Shown in pieces: positions 10,501 to 64,000 of a stretch of DNA of 64,000 nt. A program made the translations under genes and the position numbers. The notes below the pieces were generated by a model, which did not search any database, had not been told where the DNA came from, and saw only the letters and a program-made list of their open reading frames with translations. Origin of the DNA: Lingula anatina (taxonomy: Eukaryota > Animalia > Brachiopoda). Where the stretch lies: positions 32,674,001 to 32,738,000 of the forward strand of contig CM120642.1 of the NCBI GenBank assembly GCA_051362555.1. The letters run 5' to 3'. Every line of letters begins with the position of its first letter. Position 1 is the stretch's first letter.

Positions 10501-11043
10501 CTGGTTTAAATTTGTTCTTATTAATCACTTGTCTCCATTCGTTTTTTTTTAAGTGGGTTTTATATTTTTCCCAACACTTTTCCCATTGTCATGCATGTTA
10601 AAAACGACCATACATAAACGGAGACACACTTAAGTACCGGCTAAGACCGTCCAAACAAAGTAAAAGATTCATCAAGTCGCAAGTGAGACACAAATAAAAA
10701 GCAGTTTACCTAGGTCGGCATCCAGATGCTCCCAGTCTTCATCCGCTACAGGTACTGTCCCAGCGTCATCGTATTTTGTTCTGTCATTAATCTCACACGT
10801 TTTACTACTGCTATGGTAGTTGACAGATGTACAGGTCGCTGAGCCGAGATGAAGACAGAGAACAGTGCAATGCGCTTTGTCGCGTACGCTGTACGTCGTT
10901 GGTTGTGCGCCGCTGAAAACTCCATTTGAAAGTCTTGATCCGTTGGAACTTTTAAAATATCCCCAGCTGTATGAATTTCCTCCATTCAACTGAATGGACA
11001 ACAAACAAAGCAGAAATATACATGTTTTTATCCTCTGCCCCAT
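217..11043 (-). CDS. Gene A: secreted multidomain lectin-like protein (SP-PAN-FN3-Caspr-type fibrinogen-like-F5/8C-SUEL-fibrinogen-like...), exons 1-12; 3' part lies beyond the left edge
   Basis: Exons (minus): 11043-10710, 8376-8062, 7853-7551, 7377-7249, 6594-6427, 5557-5358, 4789-4688, 3908-3767, 1914-1657, 1207-1020, 784-613, 294-217. All have GT-AG boundaries, and lengths and phases equal those of exons 1-12 of gene C. Motifs: HCTVLC..CTSVNY..KTCEIN (PAN), W.SGFNGG..QTF (FN3), IDPDG..GPF.VECDM..IHH (Caspr-type fibrinogen-like), PLGMQS..QWYQIDLG..VAT.GR (F5/8C), AFYG..CQQRTSC..VFGDPC..KYL (SUEL). Confidence 0.85.
496..597. repeat. Compound (CT)n(CA)n microsatellite in gene A intron 11
   Basis: Direct reading; a much shorter version exists in gene B at about 21624-21665. 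Confidence 0.95.
2045..3146 (+). mobile_element. 5'-truncated, frameshifted RTE-clade non-LTR retrotransposon in gene A intron 8
   Basis: RT motifs FIDYQKAFD, GVRQGCVMSP, INNLRYADD, FNYLG; 3' GAAGAAGAC tail; 12-bp TSD ACATATCTTGAA at 2033-2044 and 3147-3158; a single copy of the target is at the paralogous site in gene B (22921-22932). Confidence 0.92.
4543..4597. repeat. (TA)n microsatellite
   Basis: Direct reading. Confidence 0.95.
5805..6361. mobile_element. Non-autonomous TIR DNA transposon (PIF/Harbinger-like MITE) in gene A intron 5
   Basis: TIRs TACCCCATTCACACTACAGT / ACTGTAGTGTGAACGGGGTA, 3-bp AAT duplication on both sides; absent from the paralogous gene B intron (about 24551-24570). 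Confidence 0.8.
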
Positions 11044-15685: not shown

Positions 15686-18020
15686 GTTTTTTTTCTTTTT
15701 TATTGACACAATACATCACAAATACATGACAATACAAATAAAGGAACAACTCTCGCTCACACTTAAGAAAAATGTGTTGTGCTATTTCGCTTTTAATTAA
15801 TTACATCGTCGTACTCTAAAATATTCAGATTGCAAATAAATTAATTATATTTGAGGTGTTCTGACAGAGTGACTTATCTGTTTTCACCAGATATCTAAGC
15901 GATGAAATCAAACATCCCAAAGTTGGTTTACCCCGTGAAAACCTTCTTAAGTAAATATAAAATTTAAATTGCAATAAAATGACATTAATAATTGGAGAGA
16001 GGCTTGTAGAGCCAACTAAGCAATTTCGTTTTTGAGACAAGTAGAATAATTTGAGTACTGGATAATATATATTTTAGAAAATCGTTCTGTGATTTTGGGT
16101 AACCTCACAATGCCAGAATAAATGCCTTGAAGCCTACAACGACTACAACTACAACAACCACCAAACCTACAACGACTACAACTACAACAACCACCAAACC
16201 TACAACGACTACAACTACAACAACCACCAAACCTATACTGACTACAACCACAACCACCACCAAACCTGCAACGACTACAACTGAACCTACAACTACAACA
16301 ACCACCAAACCTACACTGACTACAATTGAACCTACAACTACAACAACCACCAAACCTACAACGACTACAACTGAACCTACAACTACAACCATCACCAAAC
16401 CTACACTGACTACAACTGAACCTACAACATCAACAACCACCAAACCTACAACGACTACAACTGAACCTACAACTACAACAACCACCAAACCTACACTGAC
16501 TACAACTGAACCTACAACTTCAACAACCACCAAACCTACACTGACTACAACTGAACCTACAACTACAACAACAACTCTTTTGCAAACGGAACATATATTA
16601 TTGTCGACCATTTGATATTTGAAAAGCAGTGAATTTGTGGTAAGGATATTTTGATTAATTCGAAATTGGAACCAGTTAAGATTTGAGCTTTTGTTATCAT
16701 GAAAGGAAGTTAAAAATGTTCGGATGTTCATTTCCATCCAAATTTAATAACTTCTTCCATTTATTCATAACTTTTGACATCTCAAGAACAACTACTTAAC
16801 TTAAAGTTTTATGATTAATCTTTGAGCCTAACAGCCTGACAATAACAATATATGATCAGGAATTAAAGGAGTGGCCATTTTACTGAATTTTTCAGGAATA
16901 CTACTACTAAGATAATTCTATGATATTCGACAAAATTTGTGTCAGTACCATGATTATCCCCTCATTGTCTTGTATTCTTTTTTTCGACAATAAGTCTTCT
17001 CACCCATGGAATTTTAACGATTTTATAAAGTGCCTCATACTTACCATTCTCAAACCCCCGGCTTTATAATCTCTTATAATGATATTTCTTTTAATTTTAT
17101 CAGGTTTATTATTCCAGAGAAAAGTAAACAGACGTTTTTTTTTCTAATTCTTTCTGTTTTTCCTCTCTAGATCTATTAAATGCGCCTTGTAATTTTTCTT
17201 TTCGTACTTCCTCCAATTCTCTTTGCTTTTGTCTTAAAGTCTGAATGTTGTCCTCGCAAATTATGTTTTCTAAAATTTCAATTATCTTAATTAGCTTCTT
17301 TTCTGTTTCTGACTTTTCCTTCTTAGGTAAGAAGCATAAGAAATTGTCTTACCCCTATTTTCACCAGAAGTGTTTCAAAAAATAGGTGATCATTTACCGC
17401 AAAATGAATTTCTTTGTACGGTATATTTCGGAAGTTTTTGAAATTATATACCGGGGCTGCGTACTGTTTTTTAACCTCTATAATTTTACTTCTAATTGCT
17501 TCAATATATGTTATATCGTGCAGTAAGGAATTATTGAATTTCCAGAAGCCCCTACCCTTAACGTATGCGTGGAAGGTAAGTGATACCACTACAGCCGAGT
17601 GATCAGTCCTATAGCCGGGCTTGATAAAGCACGATTTAGTGCTAAAGTAGTCAAAAAGTAGTCTAGTCGAGCTTGTTGAAAAGGTGTTCGTCGTAGCCAC
17701 TTATACTTATTAATATTTGGATGCAATCGTCTATACGAATCAATGAGGTTATAACTGTCCTTCATTTCCAAAATTTTGTTTCTGAAATTAGGGTTATTTA
17801 CATGTATATTGTTTTGATAATTCTTGACTGGATCTAGCCCCAGATTAAAGTCTCCACATATTATAATGTTTTTACACCCAAAAGTTTCTATACTGGTTAA
17901 AGGGAGTAAAAAAATCAGGTTTATCCGTATTTGGGTCGTATACTGAACAGATAAGAAATTTCCTATTTTCTATCAGTACCTCTAGTAGAATGTAATTTCC
18001 ATTTTAGACTCGTTTCTCAT
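15686..18020 (-). mobile_element. Degenerate, internally deleted L1/Tx1-clade LINE ORF2 relic
   Basis: Endonuclease motifs (YKWLRR..QARLDYFL, GYRTDHSAV, GRGFWKFNNSLL) at 17.3-18.0 kb; C-terminal FQFRINQNILTTN..C..C..HLFWHC zinc-binding region at 16.1-16.7 kb; AATAAA and A-rich tail at about 15686-15704. Boundaries approximate. Confidence 0.82.
16131..16575 (+). repeat. ACA-rich minisatellite (KPTTTTTEPTTTTTT-like units) inside the LINE relic
   Basis: Repeated ACCACCAAACCTACA(AC/CT)GACTACAACTGAACCTACAACTACAACA units of about 45 bp, with shorter units at the left end. Confidence 0.9.
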
Positions 18021-46592: not shown

Positions 46593-49278
46593 ACACGACG
46601 TACCCAGCATTAATTTGGATCGATGTTTAAAGATAGGCCTACATAACAGGCGAGGGTACATATTTGTACATTCCCTTACATTCCCTTGTACATCACTGCT
46701 ACAAGTTTTCTTCACACGCATATTAAGTCCACGTTCCAACAAAAATTCAAATTAATTCGGTCAGCCGAAAAAAAGGTTTGACTTTGAAAAGGCACTTTCC
46801 TCAAGTTTCTGGTCTTAATCGTGATAAACTTACTTATCCTTCCTTAGTTTTGTATGAAGCAAAAATGAAACAAAATATACCGGATCTTGTCTTATTTCTG
46901 TACTTTATACCGTTTGAAACTATATGTTGGCATATATGGTCGGGCTCAATGGCAGTGACGTCTATTCCATTAATATGCTTCTTTGAGTAAAGTCCGTAAC
47001 AAAGTTGGACAACATTTTCTTGAGTGAATATGACATTACCATACTGTTGCTACATAGGCATGAAGATATAACTATTACCGTCACCGTAACGTGATTTTCA
47101 TGGTGTCGCAGTAGCGATGAGGAATGTCTCTAGGGCTAATTGGAGTTGGCAGTGATATCACAAATTTGGTAGGGACGACAATTTCCAGAGGAGAGATAAC
47201 TTTCTTTGTATAAATACAAAAAGGATCAGTTTCATTTTGAGACGCGTATTTTTGAAATGCTTGATAAGAGTATTTACACAATCTGCAAGACTAATCTGTT
47301 TATTTGGAGGGACTGAACTTTATGTGTATGCCGATTTGTTTTTTCAAAAAACTTCACAGCATAATGGGAATTGTAAGACGGATAAGTGCAATTTTAGGCA
47401 CAGTTTTATGTGCGTCATACTAGGCAAAATTATTTGACATACATGTGCGCGGACACTGCGTGATAAATTATGTAAATATGATAACGATAATTCATGAAAT
47501 CTTGTGTCTGTGAAAATTATTTTTCTTTTGTTGTTTCATTATACTCTACATTGTAAAAGGACGTGAGTAAATTATGTGATAAAAGTATGTAGTTTTTGTA
47601 ATCCATACACTACAGTATAAGTGAATCTGAGAAAAATTTGAAATTAAGTACCATTTCCAAATGCATTGAATTATTTTATAGGGGGTGGGTGAAAAATAAA
47701 TTAAAAAAAAAACGTGGAAACGTTGGTAATTCCTTTTTTTAATTTCTCAGAGATTTTCTCCTATAATTCCGTGTATAATATGCAACGTTAATGTACCGCC
47801 ATTGCATGGCATTTTGTCCAGAGCTGAATTGACATTTTTAATCTTTTTATTTTATTATATTATTATTATTATTTATTTTATTTCATTTTATTTTATTTTA
47901 TTTATTTATTTATTTTTTTGTGGCCTCTTGGGGGCCGCCCTTCTCCCAGACTGCCGTCTGTATCACAATTAGAATCATATTTTCAATTAACAACGTGGCC
48001 ACACAAAATTGAAGTTCACATAAATTGTTGAACATAGTGTCTTCAAATCCATTAATGCAAATACAATTGACGGGATTAATAACCTCTAGCTCCACAGTCA
48101 TAACGCTTGGCCGTATCCAGCCGAGAACCTTATAGTGATAATAACCCGAGTACTTCTCACTGAATGTAAATCGCATTTTAGACGTTTGAACAGATATATA
48201 GGCGTTGAGGTCCGCGCGTAAACAAGAGACTAATAAAAAGCATGTCACTGAAGAAGAAGAATAGACTTCTTTATCTGAAAGATTACTAGTGAAATTTTTT
48301 TACTATTGAAATTTTCTAATTTTGTTTATGCCATTCTGTGCCACAGGGGCGCCTACAATCTTTTGACTTAAATATTTTTGATGTCAGGTGCAATGTATTG
48401 ACGTAGACAATACCTTTAGAACTAGAAAAAAATCAATGTATGAACAATACTTGATTGACCGATTTAGAATGACAGCGAGCAGCTAAATGATTACCAAAAG
48501 ATATCCTTTAGAAAATAAATTGCAAGCAAAATGATCCATTTCCCTCAAGTTCGGGGAACAGATGGTTAAAGGCAATCACTTTGCATTTACAACTGTACCC
48601 TTACGCACTCTAATTTATCTGTTTAGCCAGCTGTCGTCTTTTGAAATCCTGCGTCACCAATTTTTCTTACAGTTTAAAAATAAATTATTCAATAAGTATA
48701 ACAGTAAGACCAATATTTGCGGATGACATATTCAGCTACATCCTCATCTGTTATTAAGAAGACATTTAAATGGAGGGGATAAACAGTTATGGAATAAAAG
48801 GAAATACATCAACAAAATCAATTAATCGTCCAAAAATAGTTAATGATAAATGATGTAAGTGGAAAACATTATGGTACGTTACTTTTCAAATGTCCGCTCT
48901 TCGATATGATCGAGAAAGAAGAATCTTTAATCACGCAGCAAAGTAGGCCCGTACGAATATATTATTATTATTATTATTTTATTATTTTATTTATTTATTT
49001 TTATTTATTTATTTTATTTTTTTATTATTATTATTTTTATTATTATTATTATTTTTTTTTTTTTGAAAACAAACGGAATGCAGTATCTATCAGAGAATAC
49101 AGCATTTATTCTAATTCAAAAGATTCAGTTGGGTTCAAAGTATGTCTCTCAAAATTGATATTTATTTTCATAGCAAACATTTTAATGTCACTTTTTGTAA
49201 ACTTTTATTATTCTTTTATTAAAAGTCTGACATTTAGAAAAAACACCAGGACTGTAGCTGGGTTTGAGACCAGGCATA

Positions 49279-51360
49279 TCAGACTTTAATGGTGTAGAAA
49301 GGGTACTTTTTGTGTTTGCTGTATTTTATTATTCTTGACGTCATCTGACCACGGTGGCACCACTGGTCCCACACCTAGAAAGAAACCAGATACCTCAGCC
49401 TAACTATCATTACAGTGGTAAAAATTAAAAAGTCTCTTGTTATTGTTGCACGCATTATTCACTGTATCCTAGCACTGTATCCGTGCAAGTGCGTCTCGAT
49501 TCCATGGCCCCGTATCTCGAAATAGCATCGGTTATGAAATCGAGACACTAAAGCACGTGCGGAACATAGCGAACCTTTCGAGATACGGAGCCCTGGGCTC
49601 CGTAACTCGAAAGCATCGCGAACTGCGATAGCGATATCACCTTTCATTTAGAGGCTATGGGGCGAGTAAATCCCGAGTTATGGAATAGAGACGAATCTCG
49701 AGTTACGGAGCCCAGAAAAGCACACGGAGAACGTGCCCCCCCCCCCCCCCCCCCCCCCCACTCATTCACATAAACAGACCTAAGAGGTATTGTGCTATAG
49801 ACGCAAATTTTAATCAAACAAATACTACCATTATGTTAATAATTCTAAGGCCCCGTTTAGAATAAGAAAGTCCAAGTGCTAACTGGCCCACGGCATAAAA
49901 ATGGCGGACCTACATGAAAGGAAGACCGCTTAAACCTGTCATGGCCTCTCCGCTTCTCACACGCCTCCCCACGCGTCGTCCCTGAAGGATCACAGTAATT
50001 AAATCTCGACTCCATTCGACCAGACGCGTGAGGAGGCGTATGAGAGGCAGAACTCCCTTACGAAAAAGTCCCATAGGATCCTATTAGATCCTACAGGATT
50101 TTATAGGAAATTGGCCCAATTTTGTATTCACAGATATGTCTCTAGATAGATAGATGGTCATTTTGGTCTGAAGTGCAGTAGAGGGCACTGCAGAGTATAC
50201 TTTGGTGTTCTTATTTCTAGCCAATACTCGTAGAACGAGTATTATTATATACAATTAATACAAAAATAAAAGAAAAATCATTCACACAGTGCAGACCCAA
50301 TGCAGCTCAATCAATCAATCTATCATATCATACCACATCAATAAATCACTCACATCACATCAGAATTTAATTGAAATCTTATTGAGTCTAAGTTGGTCCA
50401 TTTCTAAAATATCCTGAACTTTTTATCAAAATCAACCCGCAACAGTTAAGGGGGCTTTAACAGACGGTAGACCGTTTTAAGTTTAATCACGTCTGAAAAA
50501 AGCAAACTGTAGCTCTTACCATGATCCCCTCATCAGTGAAAGAATCGAATATGGCAGCGTGGCCAAAATAGTGGCGACCAGGAAACGTTGCGATAGCAGT
50601 GAACTGATCAATGCCACTGGTACGGCGCATGCCCCAAAACGTCTTCCATACCTTGACGAAATTTAATTATATAAGGTTTAACCCGAAACGCATTGCATTA
50701 ACAAAAGAACGAAGGGGAACAAATGAAAGAGCCGAAGAGATAAATGAAAAGTGATGATGAATCCAAAAAGTATTGGTATCTGTTTTCGCCAATGGAGTCA
50801 GACATAATATCTCATATTAAAAAAAAGGTAGATAAAGGGGGGACTTACTTTAGTCCCTTTTTTCCAGTTCCTAGTCTGTGTGTACGCTTTGGGACAGAGC
50901 ACCTTGACCACGTTGGTGCACTCACAGTATCTGTCTGGGCCATATACATAACTGCCAGCCCGGCTACGTGGGTCAAAGCACGAGATGTGAGCATCCGTGA
51001 CAGCTGGAAAGTCAGACTTAATCATAATACATTGAGCTATATTTGAAAAAAAAAAAAAACTTTTACAAGACAAAACTGTAAAAATGTGATCCAAGGACAT
51101 CTATTAGCCGTTCGTGTTGGTACAGTGTCGGAACGACATTGCTTTATCATTTTATGCCATGTTTAAAAAATGGAAAAAAAAACTTAGTCGATTGAATATC
51201 GGTAAAACATGCAGTCATGGCAAATTCATCATATTTAGGCTTATTAGTTGATAATCAAATTAATTTCGAAAACTTCCCCACTCATATTCGCTAATAGAAA
51301 AAAGGGAGAGGACTTACCAAAGAAGAAAAAGATGACCAAAACAACCAGTATGATCTTCAT
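49279..51360 (-). CDS. Secreted NlpC/P60-fold peptidoglycan amidase, Tae2/Dae2 (BPSL0067-like) domesticated amidase effector, 141 aa, 4 coding exons
   Basis: Exons (minus) 51360-51318, 51003-50849, 50651-50520, 49374-49279 join in frame (43+155+132+96=426 nt) with GTAAG donors and AG acceptors. Protein: MKIILVVLVIFFFFAVTDAHISCFDPRSRAGSYVYGPDRYCECTNVVKVLCPKAYTQTRNWKKGTKVWKTFWGMRRTSGIDQFTAIATFPGRHYFGHAAIFDSFTDEGIMVWDQWCHRGQMTSRIIKYSKHKKYPFYTIKV*. The ordered motifs EC...VK, T..WKKG..V, TAIATF, GHAAIF, GI.V.DQW and F Y.I match the family signature. AATAAA follows at about 49215-49220. Confidence 0.85.
49505..49715. mobile_element. Two adjacent related mini TIR elements in intron 3 of the Dae2-like gene
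   Basis: GGCCCCGTATCTCGAAA...TTTCGAGATACGGAGCC (about 49505-49592) and CTGGGCTCCGTAACTCGA...TCGAGTTACGGAGCCCAG (49593-49715). Confidence 0.65.
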
Positions 51361-51484: not shown

Positions 51485-53154
51485 TAATAAAGGGAACCGG
51501 AGAAGATCAGCATTGGTCAGAATTGTGCCGGAAGTGACGTGCAGGGGTGTTAGAAGCGAAGCTGAGTGGTCATTTTAACATAGAGGTGAACGGTAGTGAA
51601 GACGGGTTGTCAGAAGAAAAAGAAGTTTTCTAAACAACATGGTAAGATAACTCTCCTTTTTTACGCATTTTGGGCAGAGAATACTTGTAGAAATAATAGA
51701 CGCATGATATGAAAACGTGACACGGAACTTGAAGGTGCAAAATCGTGCTTAATTTGCGGTCAATTTGTTTAGAAATAAATGCTGCGTCGACCGCCAGCGC
51801 GACAAAAAGCGTAAAGGGGAAATAATTCCCGGGAGTCTATAAATCGTTGTCATGTGGAAATTTGGCATTAATATAATCCGATATGTCCATATCTAAGTAT
51901 TTTTGGGTGTTTTATGGTATGGGCTGCAACTACAACGATGTTTTAGAGGTCTTGAAGGACCTTGTGAAAACCAGGAAGTAGTTCGTAACTAACAAGTGCA
52001 ATGTACCGATCTCCGACTGCTGTGCACAGCTGTATCTTTTTTTTTCAATATATTGACGAATTTTTAGATCTTTATATGTCCATCTGGCATGAAATTCCAC
52101 ACACATGATCACACTGATACACCTTTTACACTGGGGTAGGTTTAAATCAGTGACGAATGCCAAGACAAAGGTGACATTCTGACAGCCTCTTATCTGAGTT
52201 AAAAATCACTGACAAAAGAGACTGGCAATCATTTTCCTCAGGCTGGCATTCATTAGCCTATAGAAATTGGTCATGTTACATCTTATCTACCTGTGAGAAT
52301 CGTTTTACCAACTGAGTATTGCATAATAATGTCAATTATTAGTACTTTGAGCTAGTCTTAATTACCTGTCAGCTCACCTGAATTCTCTTTCCGTCTTTTT
52401 GGGAAGATCTTGTCAGTGAAATGTTTTATTTGTCCTGTGAATGCATTGCACTTTATTGTATATTTGTCACCTTTGTCTTGGCATTTGTCACTGATTAGCG
52501 CCTTCCCCAGTGTAAAAGGTGTATCAGTGTGATCATGTGTGTGGAATTTCATGCCAGATGGACATATAAAGATCTAAAAATTCGTCAATATATTGAAAAA
52601 AAGATACAGCTGTGCACAGCAGTCGGAGATCGGTACATTCCACTTGTTAGTTACGAACTACTTCCTGGTTTTCACAAGGTCCTTCAAGACCTCTAAAACA
52701 TCGTTGTAATTGCAGCCCATACCATAAAACACCCAAAAATACTTAGATATGGACATATCGGATTATATTAATGCCAAATTTCCACATGACAACGATTTAT
52801 AGACTCCCGGGAACTATTTCCCCTTTACGCTTTTTGTCGCGCTGGCGGTCGACGCAGCATTTATTTCTAAACAAGTTGACCGCAAATTAAGCACGATTTT
52901 GCACCTTCAAGTTCCGTGTCACGTTTTCATATCAAGCGTCTATTATTTCTACAAGTATTCTCTGCCCAAAATGCGTAAAAAAGGAGAGTTATCTTACCAT
53001 GTTGTTTAGAAAACTTCTTTTTCCTCCGACAACCCGTCTTCACTGCCGTTCACCTCTATGTTAAAATGATCACTCAGCTTCGCTTCTAACACCACTGCAC
53101 GTCACTTCCGGCACAATTCTGACCAATGCTGATCTTCTCCGGTACCCGTTATTA
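51485..53154. repeat. Long near-perfect inverted repeat: arms 51485-52176 and 52465-53154, spacer about 290 bp
   Basis: The arms are reverse complements with only scattered mismatches, e.g. CCGGAGAAGATCAGCATTGGTCAGAATTGTGCCGGAAGTGACGT versus ACGTCACTTCCGGCACAATTCTGACCAATGCTGATCTTCTCCGG. Confidence 0.95.
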
Positions 53155-55766: not shown

Positions 55767-58700
55767 AACAAGGCAGCAAAGCTGTCAAATGTACAGACAA
55801 AAAACAGGAAATAACTATGCACAAAATAGGCTACTGTCAATTCTGATGCAAAAATACATTATGTTAAACTGCAAATTCAACATCAAATTTTAATTATCCT
55901 CAACAGGTAATACCAATGTAATTAAAATATGTGACAAGTTTACACTTTGAAAATATATAACTTCCAGAAAAAGAAGTCACGTAGAATGCTTTTCCAACTC
56001 AGACTGCATTTTAGTCCTGTATTTCTTTTTTGAAAGTTTGGCAATCATAAGTAACATGGTTTTCCCATAATGGTCATCATGGCAGCAGCACCCAAAATTG
56101 TGTTTTCTTCTATTCTGATGCCATATTACATAATGGTTAACAGCATAATGACCGTCAATTTTTAATAATGAAATATACATATCATGGATTTTCAGAAAAT
56201 GTGACTAGCATGGGTCTTCAAGCCCGTGGAACTTCAAAGTCACACCTTGAAAATGCCAATATGTGAAAAATTAAATTTTCACAAAATAACTGTTTAACTG
56301 GCAGTAAGAATTACCAAACAGACTATATTTCCTACTGAAGCTCCCATGTTTCTTTCCTGTAAGTTTGAGAACAGTAAATGACATGGTTTTTCTTAAATGG
56401 TCATCATGGGAGCAGTGCCCAAAATAGTTTTTTTTTTCAAATTTTGATGCAATATTACATAATGTTTAACAGCATAATGACCATCAACTTTAATAATAAA
56501 ATATTAGTATTATGGATATTCAGAAAATGTGACTAGCAAAGGTCTTCAGGCCCATGGAACTTCAAAGTCACAATTTGAAAATGCCAAAATGTAAACGAGA
56601 CAGCACTGTTCTGAAATGTTTTTTTTTTTCCAGTGTTGCATATATGCTGAAAAGTGAAAAAACAGCATAACTTCTACATTAATGGCCCCATCATGCCGAT
56701 TTTCGAACTTGACCTGCATTTTATGAATATTCATCAGCTATGTAAATATAGAGCCAAAAAGTAAAACTGCCTTCCACTTATCGTGTTTACAATGAAAGTG
56801 CATGGCGCCGGCGACAGCAACAGTGACGGCAACGACGGCGACGACAGACGCAGGTGATGGCAATATGTACAGACACATCTGTACATACTAACTGTACTGT
56901 TTGAGAACAGTAAGTGACATGGTTTTTCTTAAATGGTCATCATGGGAGCAGTGCCCAAAATAGTTTTTTTTCAATTTTTGATGCAATATTACATAATGTT
57001 TAACAGCATAATGACCATCAATTTTTAATAATAAAATATTAGTATCATGGACAAATAGTAAACGTGACTAACAAAGGTTTTTAGGCCGATGGAACTTCAA
57101 AGTAACACCTTAAAAATGCCAAAATGTAAACAAGACTGCACTGTTCTGAAATGGGTTTATTTCCATTTTTAACACTTTTTTAACATAAAACAAAATTAAT
57201 AGGTTACTGCCATTTTTATAAGATCAACTAAGAAAATTGATGAGATGTGAAAAATATGAATAGAACAGTGTTAAATGTCCAATTTCTTCCATTCTGAGAT
57301 TCTGAACATACTGAATTATTGAATCTGACAAACTGCAATGATATGAGTTTATTTCCATTTTTGACACTTTATTACACAATACACAATAACAAGTTTACCA
57401 TCATTTTTACATAATCAACTAACAATGTTGTAAAGATGCAGGAAATGTCAAACAAACACTTTTATGTATCTTATTACTTAAATAATAAGGCTATTAACAT
57501 GCCTAAGAATTAAATCTGAGGAAATCTGAGGAAATGTGAAAAAACAGCATAACTTCTAAAATAATGCCCCGATTATGCTGATTTTCGAACTCAACCTGCG
57601 TTTTAGTAAGACTGACCATTCCTGTGAGTTTAATGACAATTGAGCTTTCTGTTTTTCTTATATTGTGTTTACAGTGTTGCATATATGCTGAACAATGAAA
57701 AAACTGCATAACTACTAAAATAGTGGCCCGATCATGCTGATTTTCGAACTTGACCTGCGTTTTAGTAAGATTGATTACTCCTGTGAGTCTCATGACAACA
57801 GGCCTAACGGTTTTCCTTAAAATGTGTTTACAAGGTTGCAAATATGCTGAAAAGTGAAACAAGGCAGCAAAGCTGTCAAATGTACAGACAAAAAACAGGA
57901 AATAACTATGCACAAAATAGGCTACTGTCAATTCTGATGCAAAAGTACATTATGTTAAACTGCAAATTCAACATCAAATTTTAATTATGCTCAACAGGTA
58001 ATACCAATGTAAGTAAAATGTGTAACAAGTTCACACTTTGTATATGTATAACTTCCAGAAAAAGAAGCCAATTAGACTGCTTTTCCAACTCAGGCTGCAT
58101 TTAAGTCCTGTATTTCTTTTATTGAAAGTAAGGCAATCATAAGTAACATGATTTTCCCATAATGGTCCTCATGGCAGCAGTGCCCAAAATACTTTTTTTC
58201 AAATTTTGATGCAATATTACATAATGTTTAACAGCATAATGACCATCAATTTTAATAATAAAATATTAGTATTATGGATATTCAGAAAATGTGACTAGCA
58301 AAGGTCTTCAGGCCCATGGAACTTCAAGTCACAACTTGAAAATGCCAAAATGTAAACAAGACAGCACTGTTCTGAAATGTTTTTTTTTTATTTTTTATAA
58401 TTTTTAACATAACACAAAATTAACAGTTTACTGCCGTTTTTATATGATCAACTAAGAAAATTGATGAGATGGGGAAAATATCAATAGAGCAGTGTTAAAT
58501 GTCCAATTTCTTCCATTCTGAGATTCTGAACATAGTGAATGATTGAATCTGACAAACTGCAATGATATGAGTTTATTTCCATTTTTGAAACTTTATTACA
58601 CAATACATGATAACAAGTTTACCATCATTTTTACATAATCAACTAATAATGTTGTAAAGATGCAGGAAATGCCAAACAAACACTTTTACGTATCTTATTA

Positions 58701-60994
58701 ATTAAATAATGAAACTGTTAACATGCCTAAGAACTGAATCTGAGGAAATGTGAAAAAACGGCATTTTTTTAAAATAATGGCCCAATTATGCTGTTTTTTT
58801 TAACTCAACCTGCGTTTTAGCAGGAATGACCACTCCTGTGAGTTTAATGACAATTGGCCTGTTTTTCTTATATTGTGTTTACAGTGTTGCATATATGCTG
58901 AAAAATGAAAAAACAGCATAACTACTAAAATAGTGGCCCGATCATGCTGATTTTCGAACTTGATCTGCATTTTATGAATATTCATCAGCTCTGTAAATAT
59001 ACAGTCAAAAAGTAAAATTGCCTTCCACTTATCGTGTTTACAATGAAAGTGCACGGCACCAGCGACAGTGACGACGGCGACGACAGACGCAGGTGATGGC
59101 AATATGTACAGACACATCTGTACATATTTACTGTACTGTTTGAGAACAGTAAGTGACATGGTTTTTCTTAAATGCTCATCATGGGAGCAGTGCCCAAAAT
59201 AGATTTTTTTCAAATTTTGATGCAATATTACATAATGTTTAACAGCATAATGACCATCAATTTCTAATAATAAAATATTAGTATCATGGATATTCAGAAA
59301 ATGTGACTAGCAAAGGTCTTCAGGCCCATGGAACTTCAAAGTCACAACTTGAAAATGCCAAAATGTAAACAAGACAGCACTGTTCTGAAATGTTTTTTTT
59401 TTTTCCATTTTTAACAATTTTTTAAACATAAAACAAAATTAACAGGTTACTGCCATTTTTATACGATCAACTAAGAAAATTGATGAGATGGGAAAAATAT
59501 CAATACAACAGTGTTAAATGTCCAATTTCCTCCATTCTGAGATTCTGAACATAGTGAATGATTAAATCTGACAAACTGCAATGATATGAGTTTGTTTCCA
59601 TTTTTGAAACTTTATTACACAATACAAGATAACAAGTTTACCATCATTTTTACATAATCAACTAATAATGTTGTAAAGATGCAGGAAATGTCAACCAAAC
59701 ACTTTTACATGTCTTATTAGTTAAATAATAAGACTGTTAACATGCCTAAGAATTGAATCTGAGGAAATGTGAAACAAGACAGCACTGTTCTGACATGGGT
59801 TTATTTCCATTTTTAACACTTTTTTTAACATAAAACAAAATAAACAGTTTACTGCCATTTTTATAGCATCAACTAAGATAATTGATGAGATGGGAAAATA
59901 TCAATAGAATAGTGTTAAATGTCCAATTTCCTCCATTCTGAGATTCTGAACATAGTGAATGATTGAATCTGACAAACTGCAATGATATGAGTTTATTTCC
60001 ATTTTTGACACTTTATTACACAATACACGATAACAAGTTTACCATCATTTTTACATAATCTACTAACAATGTTGTAAAGATGCAGGAAATGTCAAACAAA
60101 CACTTTAATGTATCTTATTAGTAAAATAATAAGACTGTTAACATGCCTAAGAATTGAATCTGAGGAAATGTGAAAAAACAGCATAACTTCTAAAATAATG
60201 GCCCGATTATGCTGATTTTCGAACTCAACCTGCGTTTTAGTAAGATTGACCACTCCTGTGAGTTTAATGACAATTGGCCCATCTGTTTTTCTTAAATTGT
60301 GTTTACAGTGTTGCACATATGCTGAAAAAAGGAAAAAACAGCATAACTACTAAAATAGTGGCCCGATCATGCCCATTTTCGGACTTGACCTGCGTTTTAA
60401 AAAGATTGATTACTTCTCTGAGTTTCATGACAACAGGCCTAACGGTTTTCCTTAAAATGTGTTTACAGGGTTGCATATATGCTGAAAAGTGAAAAAACAG
60501 CATAACTTCTACAATAATGGCCCGATCATGCTGATTTTCGAACTTGACCTGCGTTTTATGAATATTCATCAGCTCTGTAAATATAAAACCAAAAAATAAA
60601 ACTGTGTTCCACTTATCGTGTTTACAGTGAAAGTGCACGGCGACGGCATCGCCATCGGCATCGGCATCGGCATCGGCGACGACGGCGACGACAGACGCAG
60701 GTGATGGCAATATGTACAGACACATCTGTGTCTGTACATAAAAACAGCATAACTTCTACAAAAATGGCCTGATCATGCTGATTTTCGAACTTGACCTGCG
60801 TTTTATGAATATTCATCAGCTCTGTAAATATAAAGCCGAAAAGTAAAACTGCCTTCCACTTATCGTGTTTACAAGGAAAGTGCATGGCGACGGCATCGGC
60901 ATCGCCATCGCCATCGGCATCGGCATCGGCATCGGGGACGACAGACGCAGGTGATGGCAATATGTACAGACACATCTGTGTCTGTACATAAAAA
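55767..60994 (-). mobile_element. Tandem/nested array of the same Helentron/DINE-1-like element
   Basis: 3' hairpin ends AACAAGGCAGCAAAGCTGTCAAATGTACAGAC at 55767 and about 57858; 5' palindromic ends at about 60994 and 60744 and degenerate ones near 59120 and 56885; (GCATCG)n/(GACGGC)n microsatellites; repeated GCTGATTTTCGAACTTGACCTG modules. Confidence 0.78.
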
Positions 60995-61567: not shown

Positions 61568-63550
61568 CCTCTTTAAGAACTGTTCTACTGGAAACTGGTC
61601 CACATATGACATCTTTTTCCTTTGTATTTTCTTTTTCTGAGCACAGGAATCAGCACTGCAAGATAAACCATAGCTTGCTGGTAGGGTCAAATAGGTCTGT
61701 TTGAAAGTTTAAAATATACAATCATAATTCCTGAAAAACCCATGCTTTAGGCCAAGTAAAAACTTTTTTTAATATTTTACATATATAGTATAATATTTCT
61801 GCCAAGATTAAACTGTAAAAACCTGAGTTGAATCAATCCAAATATTTTTTCCTAATATTCTTCTTAATATCTTAGTTTTGTTGTTTTCTTACCCAAATCA
61901 ATTTTTCTTTGCTAACTAAAATCAAATAAAAAAAGGGAAAAGGATAAAAATGTTAACAAATCATGAGACGCCATAACGTTACCTGCAAGTTTCCCTGTCA
62001 GACGTAGCATCATCAGCGGTGTCATTCAGTGTCACAGTGTAAGGTGACAATTCCACATTCCTCACACTGCCAAAGAAATCCGTCACCAGTACTTTCTTAG
62101 GGTCCCGCTGAAACAGGTCTGTCCTCACTCCCACTGTAGATACACAGGCAGACTTTGGGCACACTTTTAACTGGAAGTGTCAATACAAAGATTCATCAGA
62201 TCATAGAAGTTTCAGCAGTATATCAATTACCCTTTTAAGCCTAAGGTGTTGGGTTACTTCAAAGTAAGTGGACTGGACTGAAATCTGACCAGTGCCTATG
62301 ATCAGATTGATAATTTAAATATCTAACTACGCTAAATTTGCAGAAGTAATGTACATGAAAAACCTGAATAGCTCAAATACTAGAATTATATTTAAAAAGT
62401 TTCAATAACATCATATTTCCAGTCTGTGTATTTATGTTTTACTGTGTAATAATCAGGGGCGGCAAGAGGCTGTTTTCTAGATCTTTTGGAAGATGGTTTG
62501 AATTTTTCAAGTTTACACTGACCGCCATTTAAGTTATTTCTTTGTCAGAAGCATTAAAAAACAGAGGATGGACAAAAAAAAGATGATTTGGAAGACTACC
62601 AGAAAATATCTCTGGATCCGTCCCTGACAATTGTCATTGTTTTACTTACAAATTGACTAAGAGTTTTCTTGCTTTCTGGGGTCACTTTCTCCAAGAACTC
62701 CAGAGCATAGTATGTGTATCTATCTATAACATAGACACCAATAGCAGAGTCCACATGGTGCTGGAATATACAGTATTGAGTTATTATAGAACATAATATG
62801 TACATCTGTCTATAACACAGACACCAATAGCAGAGTCTACATGGTGCTGAAAAATACAGAGTTATTATAGAAGATAATATATTTCAGGGATGGATATTTT
62901 ATACCATAAAAGTACAAAAGAGGTTCTAAATACTATGAGCTAAAAATGGATGGGAAAGGGAAAAAATCTCAATGCATCTTGCAAATTATCATGTATTTAA
63001 TATACAGTTAAAACAGACATAAGCCTAGCTTATTTAAAAAAAAAAAAAAACTCTCTGACATTTATTGCAGAAACATTAAAAACCATCAAAACTGAATTTC
63101 AAAATACGAAATTCTGTGATTTTGCTAAAAAGGAGTCCTCCCCGCCTCTGCTGCTAGCCACGCCCAGTATACTTACAGACAAGGAGTCCTCCCCCACTCT
63201 GCTGCTAACCACGCCCAGTATACTTACAGACAAGGAGTCCTCCCCCACTCTGCTGCTAGCCACGCCCAGTATACTTACAGACAAGGAGTCCTCCCTCACT
63301 CTGCTGCTAGCCACGCCCAGTATACTTACAGACAAGGAGTCCTTCCCCCACTCTGCTGCTAGCCACGCCCAGTATACTTACAGACAAGGAGTCCTCCCCC
63401 ACTCTGCTGCTAGCCACGCCCAGTATACTTACAGACAAGGAGTCCTCCCCCACTCTGCTGCTAGCCACACCCAGTATGTTTGGGGAGTACAACTTCTGGT
63501 ACATGGATTCTGCCTGACATGTGTCAATTATAAATAACACCTCGTGATAC
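61568..63550 (-). CDS. PIGK: GPI-anchor transamidase catalytic subunit (PIG-K/GPI8, peptidase C13), 3' exons; 5' part lies beyond the right edge
   Basis: Exons 63550-63433 (YHEVLFIIDTCQAESMYQKLYSPNILGVASSRVGEDSLS, catalytic Cys in DTCQA), 62760-62650 (HHVDSAIGVYVIDRYTYYALEFLE), 62170-61983 (CPKSACVSTVGVRTDLFQRDPKKVLVTDFFGSVR) and 61655-61568 (MSYVDQFPVEQFL). A terminal exon may start at 61308 (AGG TGA). Confidence 0.92.
63130..63478. repeat. 51-bp tandem repeat (about 6.8 copies) spanning a PIGK exon/donor junction
   Basis: Unit CTGCTGCTAGCCACGCCCAGTATACTTACAGACAAGGAGTCCTCCCCCACT, encoding ILGVASSRVGEDSLSVS on the minus strand; one unit is 52 bp. Confidence 0.95.
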
Positions 63551-64000
63551 CTACAAGAAAATAAAGTACTTCTGAACCATTCCATGGCATTCAAAGTATT
63601 CTAAGGCCACACTTTTTTAATTTTATGGATGACATCCTGCGCGCGCACGGATTTTCGCCCGTTCTCCAAAAAAAAAAAAAAAAAAAAAAAAAGCCCCCCC
63701 CCCCAGCCCCCAACGAAGTCGGTTGTCGCAAACGTTGTTATTGAATTTGCAAGGAAATGAGCTTTCTGCGCATGCGTATTTTCGCCACGTGGAAATGCGG
63801 CCACTTTGCTGTCAAATTCATCTCTAGGATTACTTTCAAATTACACAACAATAAAAGTCATAAAGAGAACGGGCGCCATCGTTTTGGATTGGTATGCCAT
63901 TGATATTGGGCATGGAGATATCACCTTTTTACAATTGTGCGAAAGGCTGGCGGCGGCCGAAACATTTCTGTGACATTCTGTATAAAGCAGCACGTTAATA

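Follow-up and report, generated by a model that had tools for sequence, protein, structure and literature searches.

Dae2 is a textbook example of a bacterial weapon turned to animal immunity: the gene is dated to the tick and mite ancestor, and stray copies occur elsewhere among the arthropods. The bacterial relatives of Dae2, the Tae2/BPSL0067 proteins (NF033857; PDB 6WIN), as a rule carry no signal peptide, are encoded without introns and depend on type VI delivery. According to the available part of the preprint of Hayes et al. (bioRxiv 10.1101/2020.04.10.036376), the bond between mDAP and D-Ala is the cleavage site of both Tae2 and Dae2. The tick protein digests walls of the Lys type as well and kills several Gram-positive species while sparing intact E. 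coli, which is linked there to three changed loops. A further preprint (bioRxiv 10.64898/2026.03.13.711553), in the part accessible, assigns sequences from springtail, gnat and scorpion to the dae2 group and reads the patchy distribution of dae2 among arthropods as secondary transfers. A marine invertebrate, Nematostella, possesses Dae4, a domesticated type VI amidase effector directed against bacteria, whose dependence on NF-kB and killing of Gram-positive bacteria are described in the available text of bioRxiv 10.1101/2021.05.13.443009. Dae4 represents a different Tae family (Tae4), and no sequence match was found between it and the protein presented below.

The window analysed here, a stretch of 64,000 nucleotides from the brachiopod Lingula anatina, contains one copy of a gene that sequence comparison assigns to the Tae2/BPSL0067 family. 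Its four minus-strand exons (Table 1) add up to 426 nt in frame and encode 141 aa plus a stop codon, as a sequence-only reading had proposed. The check suggested by that reading, a search for RNA reads across the predicted splice points, gave a positive result at all three junctions: in RNA run X1, junction 51318/51003 was crossed by 8 reads from 5 start points, junction 50849/50651 by 5 reads from 5 start points and junction 50520/49374 by 10 reads from 9 start points. These reads derive from poly(A) RNA, are of a single orientation and place the splice points exactly as modelled. Over intron 3, reads were found on both strands because the repeat fragments located there recur elsewhere in the transcriptome. 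The gene is intact, spliced and transcribed.

The protein is basic (pI 9.7, computed from the translation) and contains Cys43, His97 and the WKKG, TAIATF and DQW motifs, all of which had been claimed; the TATA, Inr and polyadenylation words are likewise present in the sequence as candidate sites. N-terminal hydropathy reaches 4.1 over 9 residues, small residues precede the likely cut at 19/20, and the N-terminus is probably a eukaryotic signal peptide. The earlier statement that this peptide sits on its own exon is correct for the hydrophobic core, which is encoded by exon 1, but not for the last five residues, which are encoded by exon 2.

Table 1 Features of the gene and its surroundings (positions within the window)
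Feature	Position	Strand	Remarks
Coding exon 1	51360-51318	minus	14 residues, among them the hydrophobic core of the probable signal peptide; contains start codon
Intron 1	51317-51004	minus	314 nt, GT-AG, phase 1
Coding exon 2	51003-50849	minus	end of signal peptide, Cys23, Cys41, predicted catalytic Cys43, Cys51, WKKG
Cys43 codon	50920-50918	minus	exon 2
Intron 2	50848-50652	minus	197 nt, GT-AG, phase 0
Coding exon 3	50651-50520	minus	6-residue insertion relative to RefSeq copy, TAIATF, predicted catalytic His97
His97 codon	50561-50559	minus	exon 3
Intron 3	50519-49375	minus	1145 nt, GT-AG, phase 0; contains repeat fragments
Coding exon 4	49374-49279	minus	DQW, basic tail, 6-residue deletion, stop codon
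Asp113 codon (in DQW)	49368-49366	minus	exon 4
3' untranslated region	49150-49278	minus	three candidate AATAAA words: 49220, 49209, 49166
TATA box	51419-51413	minus	word in sequence
Inr-like word	51386-51381	minus	word in sequence; candidate start-site element
Foldback element	51485-53154		1.67 kb; two 692-bp arms with 97% complementarity; terminal TA on either side; frames of 91 aa at most
PIG-K (GPI transamidase), last exons	61985-63552	minus	Peptidase_C13; upstream neighbour

A key question is to which family the spliced product belongs. Taken singly, the exons matched nothing in Pfam (none of four queries), NCBIfam (none of three) or PDB (none of two), NF033857 also being unmatched; word-seeded searches with exon 2 or exon 3 revealed no homolog, and the window's own protein was absent from all protein searches made. 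The first links came from exon 3, which in tblastn gave a weak match (E 3) to a Caballeronia gene. The latter is a BPSL0067-family member (65.9 bits), matches PDB 6WIN (Tae2) and adjoins an STY0301-family gene, which we take to be its immunity gene. Three Caballeronia BPSL0067 proteins are 34-39% identical to the spliced window protein. Atlas searches, used as leads only, connected exon 3 with CHAP (score 0.94) and the RefSeq protein LOC106175143, designated P0270, with BPSL0067 clusters (0.95).

Firmer evidence was provided by a home-built profile of 120 listed bacterial-type homologs, which contains no window sequence, although window exons were part of the query by which these homologs were detected. 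The profile scored the spliced window protein at 54.1 bits, against 7.1 for the best of 1,000 shuffles. A profile search among 1.84 billion representatives gave 430 proteins with E <= 0.001; 150 of these were listed, and 30 were looked up for names. The matches listed are overwhelmingly bacterial-type, with scattered eukaryotes, and among them the closest by far is another L. anatina protein, LOC106168280 (P0121), with 61% identity over 130 residues. LOC106175143 (141 aa) clusters with LOC106168280 and is identical to the window protein at 92 of 141 residues; it scores 64.1 bits against NF033857 (curated cut-off 27), and its sole PDB sequence match is 6WIN. In a sample of 401 genomes belonging to the phylum of genome G001, 2 had an NF033857 match. 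The assignment to the Tae2/BPSL0067 family made from the letters alone was thus borne out by the bacterial profile and by the RefSeq copy exceeding the NF033857 cut-off.

The fold was approached through the structure model of P0270 (pLDDT 89.5), a RefSeq copy that is 65% identical to the window protein. In Foldseek, 6WIN was its sole match under 0.001 (E 8e-8), and in VIA-align the model superimposed on 6WIN with Z 17.0 and an rmsd of 1.9 A over 118 residues, the next row reaching Z 8.1; CHAP and NlpC/P60 hydrolases scored ~8 or less and Tae1 ~6, which rules out Tae1 membership. The profile and Foldseek checks proposed earlier were therefore positive, mostly by way of this copy, and from its model a papain-like NlpC/P60-CHAP fold closest to that of Tae2 is predicted for the window protein. 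The putative catalytic pair could also be placed: in the alignment, Cys43/His97 of the window protein correspond to Cys43/His91 of P0270, a pair conserved without exception across 53 aligned family members, and to Cys23/His73 of 6WIN, the residues named as catalytic in the available text of bioRxiv 10.1101/2020.04.10.036376. With the bacterial proteins the Lingula type shares, besides the predicted fold and the catalytic Cys and His, the W..G, TxIATF, HAA and DQW motifs.

Another important question is whether the gene truly belongs to the animal genome. The PIG-K exons lie on the strand of the gene, ~11 kb upstream of it, and they can be compared with gene model P0271, in which PIG-K is fused to a RefSeq-type Dae2-like protein that clusters with LOC106168280. 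Exon 63552-63433 is identical to P0271 at 40 of 40 residues, exon 62766-62647 at 37 of 40 with the mismatches at the exon ends, and exon 62170-61985 at 59 of 65. The fusion probably arose in annotation, from two neighbouring genes on one strand, and the window gene occupies the position that the RefSeq-type gene has downstream of PIG-K in P0271. The PIG-K agreement, together with RefSeq-type motifs in reads of runs bearing the species label of the window, points to Lingula as the most likely host. Contamination or a chance splice model could be invoked since single exons found no family match; the likelihood of either is nevertheless negligible. Contamination is ruled out by the three spliceosomal introns seen in RNA together with the PIG-K linkage both here and in an independent model, as the introns and host neighbours had led the sequence-only reading to expect, and a chance reading frame is ruled out by the junction reads and by a profile score far above those of the shuffles. 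The hallmarks of a bacterial type VI effector, namely a bacterial gene, an adjacent immunity gene and a T6SS, are missing from this locus, where an intron-bearing gene lies between host genes; what was found instead, integration in a eukaryotic genome, splicing and transcription, is what characterizes Dae2.

The surroundings are rich in duplicated sequence. At 62846-62745 lies a degenerate second copy of a PIG-K exon, interrupted by stops; the end of a PIG-K exon is repeated in tandem within the intron at ~63100-63400; and a complex array of imperfect 200-300 nt repeats extends over 55767-60979, between the gene and PIG-K. Across positions 1-46000 a large mosaic gene of many exons, carrying PAN and WSC domains, is present several times, in tandem and in inverted orientation, and short PAN-domain exons recur at 10672, 13777, 29383 and 32041; apparent lectin, F5/8-type and fibronectin-type exons were recognized in it by eye. 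Broken reverse-transcriptase frames of a LINE-like element, also judged by eye, are located at 1961-2966, with another at ~17100-17970.

The feature that could not be recognized in the sequence-only reading, which was correct as to family, catalytic pair, introns and host context, is that the window gene is a fast-evolving copy of a RefSeq-type gene. LOC106175143 (XP_013412442) and LOC106168280 (XP_013402744) are both L. anatina records labelled uncharacterized and share the position downstream of PIG-K. Compared with P0270, exon 3 of the window copy begins with six additional residues, and six are lacking near the C-terminus, whereby the SN motif is gone; the second cysteine pair, Cys71/Cys98 in P0270 numbering, is kept in P0270 and missing altogether from the window copy, a loss that is secondary according to the tree. 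Net charge is +12 in the window copy versus +5 in the RefSeq type, and in two trees its end branch exceeds that of P0270 five- to sevenfold (0.47 versus 0.07 and 0.49 versus 0.10). Among the read differences listed, 13 of 17 coding differences change the residue, each taken alone, which gives little sign of purifying selection and no proof of positive selection.

Expression was assessed in nine RNA runs chosen by species label, of which eight (all but X6) were mapped, X1, X4, X5 and X7 at 95% likeness and X2, X3, X8 and X9 at 82%, with 6 to 30% of the reads sampled per run. The window copy was weakly expressed in three of the eight mapped runs (X1, X2 and X3) and was not seen in the other five at the mapping likeness used. 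Coverage of it in X2 and X3 was low and of a single orientation (82% likeness), no exon coverage was found in X4 and X5 at 95% likeness, and X7 yielded reads of a diverged version only (95% likeness). This diverged version was also present in X2 (4 of 8 reads at 50944) and made up X8 and X9 almost exclusively, accounting for 3,240 of the 3,250 X9 reads over position 50935. The diverged reads bear RefSeq-type motifs and have joints at places matching the window gene; the depth of this RefSeq-like copy over exon 2 was ~2,000x per orientation in X9 and ~225x in X8. Thus, in the mapped runs the RefSeq type, which has no functional name in the records, is far more strongly expressed than the window copy. 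The locus is polymorphic even within the RefSeq-like type: in X7, X8 and X9, samples of one study, at least two RefSeq-like variants differ at 50535-50606, just before the catalytic His. The foldback element ends ~65 bp upstream of the TATA box, is multi-copy as judged by two-strand RNA reads, and may explain the low expression of the window copy.

One alternative is that the window copy represents a duplicate under relaxation or decay, whose transcripts are still spliced without yielding a useful enzyme, and that the antibacterial work falls to the RefSeq type. The loss of the cysteine pair and of the SN motif, the two 6-residue indels, the long end branch, the low expression with a foldback element beside the promoter, and a proportion of residue-altering differences (13 of 17) that is about as expected without selection all agree with this. 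However, the frame is intact, both indels are in frame and all splice sites are used; Cys43, His97, WKKG, TAIATF, DQW and the Cys23/Cys51 pair are retained; 24 of 32 residues in the His-bearing core are identical to the RefSeq type; and the cysteines of the second pair were lost together, so that no unpaired partner remains. Decay is on balance unlikely, and we regard the window copy as a derived, fast-evolving version of the canonical RefSeq type, whether an allele, a cryptic-species ortholog or a paralog. The single copy in the window, the shared position and the similar UTRs favour the same locus for both versions, whereas the presence of both types in X2, the existence of two RefSeq loci and a divergence far above 1.6%, the heterozygosity given for the Lingula genome in the available text of PMC4595640, favour paralogs or very old alleles.

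Where did the gene come from? The names obtained for the 30 looked-up proteins include, on the eukaryotic side, Lingula, three ticks, a scorpion, a springtail, a fungus gnat and bdelloid rotifers, with no named mollusc or annelid homolog; the three tick proteins are annotated as domesticated amidase effector 2-like, and most of the other looked-up matches are nameless. The tick proteins (Amblyomma XP_077512416, Haemaphysalis XP_077552764 and Ornithodoros XP_064463839; ~140-146 aa) are members of the same family and share with the Lingula protein the hydrophobic N-terminus, the Cys/His pair, the DQ motif, equivalents of Cys23 and Cys51 and a common tree group. They are 29-39% identical to it, two of them have pI values of 5.4 and 7.1 versus 9.7 for the window copy, and the host in the present case is a marine lophotrochozoan. 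The second cysteine pair, a feature defined in the present analysis as common to the arthropod-Lingula group, is what the window copy lacks. Two Amblyomma isoforms with a one-residue difference right after the signal core faintly hint at an intron near the position of Lingula intron 1.

Of the 163 rows available for the trees, 55 were discarded because their coverage was short, 69 were then hand-picked and one short tick row was restored; the eukaryote-type group was defined after a FastTree result (88). When the long-branch row P0193 was included, Lingula and arthropod Dae2 grouped at 84/49; without it, a 14-row group was obtained at 95/87, the bootstrap being not fully settled. Removal of the cysteine columns, two of the four having already been filtered as gappy, left a ten-row group at 97/89, consisting of the Lingula pair, the three ticks, the scorpion, the springtail, the gnat and two unnamed proteins. 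Four cysteine-pair homologs from JGI and Logan data (P0133, P0169, P0164 and P0211) fall in the Dae2 group only when the cysteine columns are kept, and P0133 has an extra N-terminal domain without a Pfam match. At the position seven residues C-terminal to the catalytic His, 22 of 276 motif-bearing sequences (288 in total, duplicates included) have a cysteine, all of them in the Lingula-arthropod group, and 205 have Gln.

The bdelloid rotifer BPSL0067 proteins (Adineta ricciae, Rotaria socialis and R. magnacalcarata) are of the secreted type and 35-38% identical to the Lingula protein, but they have Gln rather than Cys at that position, and read-through gene calls suggest that they have an intron directly behind the catalytic helix, a place without an intron in Lingula. 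A common origin with them was dropped as the preferred reading. The rotifer-type proteins (P0134, P0131 and P0146, with the unnamed P0127, P0144 and P0152) form a group of their own, apart from Lingula and the arthropods in all trees; they likely represent a separate transfer. The words amidase and peptidoglycan do not occur in the main text of PMC11258130.

The claim of horizontal acquisition is thus upheld in that the gene was likely acquired from bacteria long ago; as a separate event in this lineage it is not clearly supported, given the grouping with arthropod Dae2 in the phylogeny that the sequence-only reading had called for. An independent bacterial transfer into Lingula, with the grouping produced by convergence on added disulfides and by a short alignment, is a serious possibility to which we give somewhat less than even weight; the enzyme could have the same function in that case. 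AU tests reject neither the placement of Lingula with the rotifer type (p 0.33) nor that with a Burkholderiales group (p 0.25), the alignment is only ~120 columns long, the separate rotifer group suggests repeated transfer in this family, molluscs and annelids are missing from the names looked up, and the secondary transfers proposed for arthropods would fit as well. On the other hand, the maximum likelihood tree holds Lingula with arthropod Dae2 even with the cysteine columns removed, and Lingula and the arthropods have cysteine positions in common, with the His+7 cysteine missing from the secreted rotifer homologs. A single origin with arthropod Dae2 is moderately preferred. The trees and searches made identified no donor lineage or T6SS context.

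A more far-reaching scenario can be put forward tentatively, as one that may well prove wrong: a single domestication would underlie brachiopod and arthropod Dae2, through entry before the lophotrochozoan/ecdysozoan split followed by loss in most lineages or through movement between animals, and the locus beside PIG-K would carry extremely divergent co-existing versions shaped by an arms race over the bacterial wall. The versions found at the locus are 65% identical in protein, beside near-identical neighbours.

Considering the evidence as a whole, we think it likely that this is a spliced Tae2/Dae2-family gene, bacterial in origin, encoding a predicted secreted peptidoglycan cutter that would serve in antibacterial defence. 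The hydrophobic N-terminus would direct secretion, with cleavage near residue 19, and the mature protein would fold as a papain-like NlpC/P60-CHAP domain, like the model of the 65% identical RefSeq copy. Cys43 would attack the peptide cross-link with His97 as the base, presumably between mDAP and D-Ala, the site that Tae2 and Dae2 are both reported to cut. CHAP enzymes have a third catalytic residue; Asp113 of DQW is its putative counterpart and probably orients His97. A net charge of +12 may draw the protein to anionic walls, so that Gram-positive or damaged Gram-negative cells would lyse, and the changed loops of the window copy would alter its target range. The gene would share its origin with arthropod Dae2. 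Both peptidoglycan cleavage and the immune role are deduced by analogy, the latter because tick Dae2 and Nematostella Dae4 act in defence.

Lingula is a filter feeder on microbes, and the enzyme might instead be secreted into gut or mantle mucus for digestion of bacterial food or for symbiont control. The very high, sample-dependent expression of the RefSeq-like type fits a secretory tissue; the assayed relatives, tick Dae2 and Nematostella Dae4, nevertheless act in defence, as far as the available parts of the respective preprints describe. Proteins that serve defence typically carry a strong positive charge and diverge rapidly. A kappaB-like word was not found between 49000 and 56000, which favours neither side much. 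Digestion or symbiont control appears improbable to us, and a role in defence remains the preferred reading.

The literature offers no precedent: in a search made up largely of papers available without subscription, none was found that treats dae2 or Tae2 together with Lingula or brachiopods, the main texts treating both dae2 and tae2 do not name Lingula, and the available parts of the Lingula genome papers PMC4595640 and PMC13121700 make no mention of amidase or peptidoglycan. The guess that dae2 was unreported in this lineage thus held. The Lingula genome is said to have appeared later than the 2015 study by Chou et al. The RefSeq-type protein is present in databases without a functional name, and the family link is therefore easily found once asked for; what is new is a Dae2 family member in a new phylum, a kind of gene described mainly from ticks and mites.

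A cysteine pair, two loops and seven charges separate the two natural versions, which lend themselves to comparing how the target range of a domesticated amidase changes. A spliced, expressed brachiopod member that groups with arthropod proteins makes both the age and the number of the transfers testable. If the origin was single, then either an ancient gain was followed by many losses or the gene was transferred from animal to animal.
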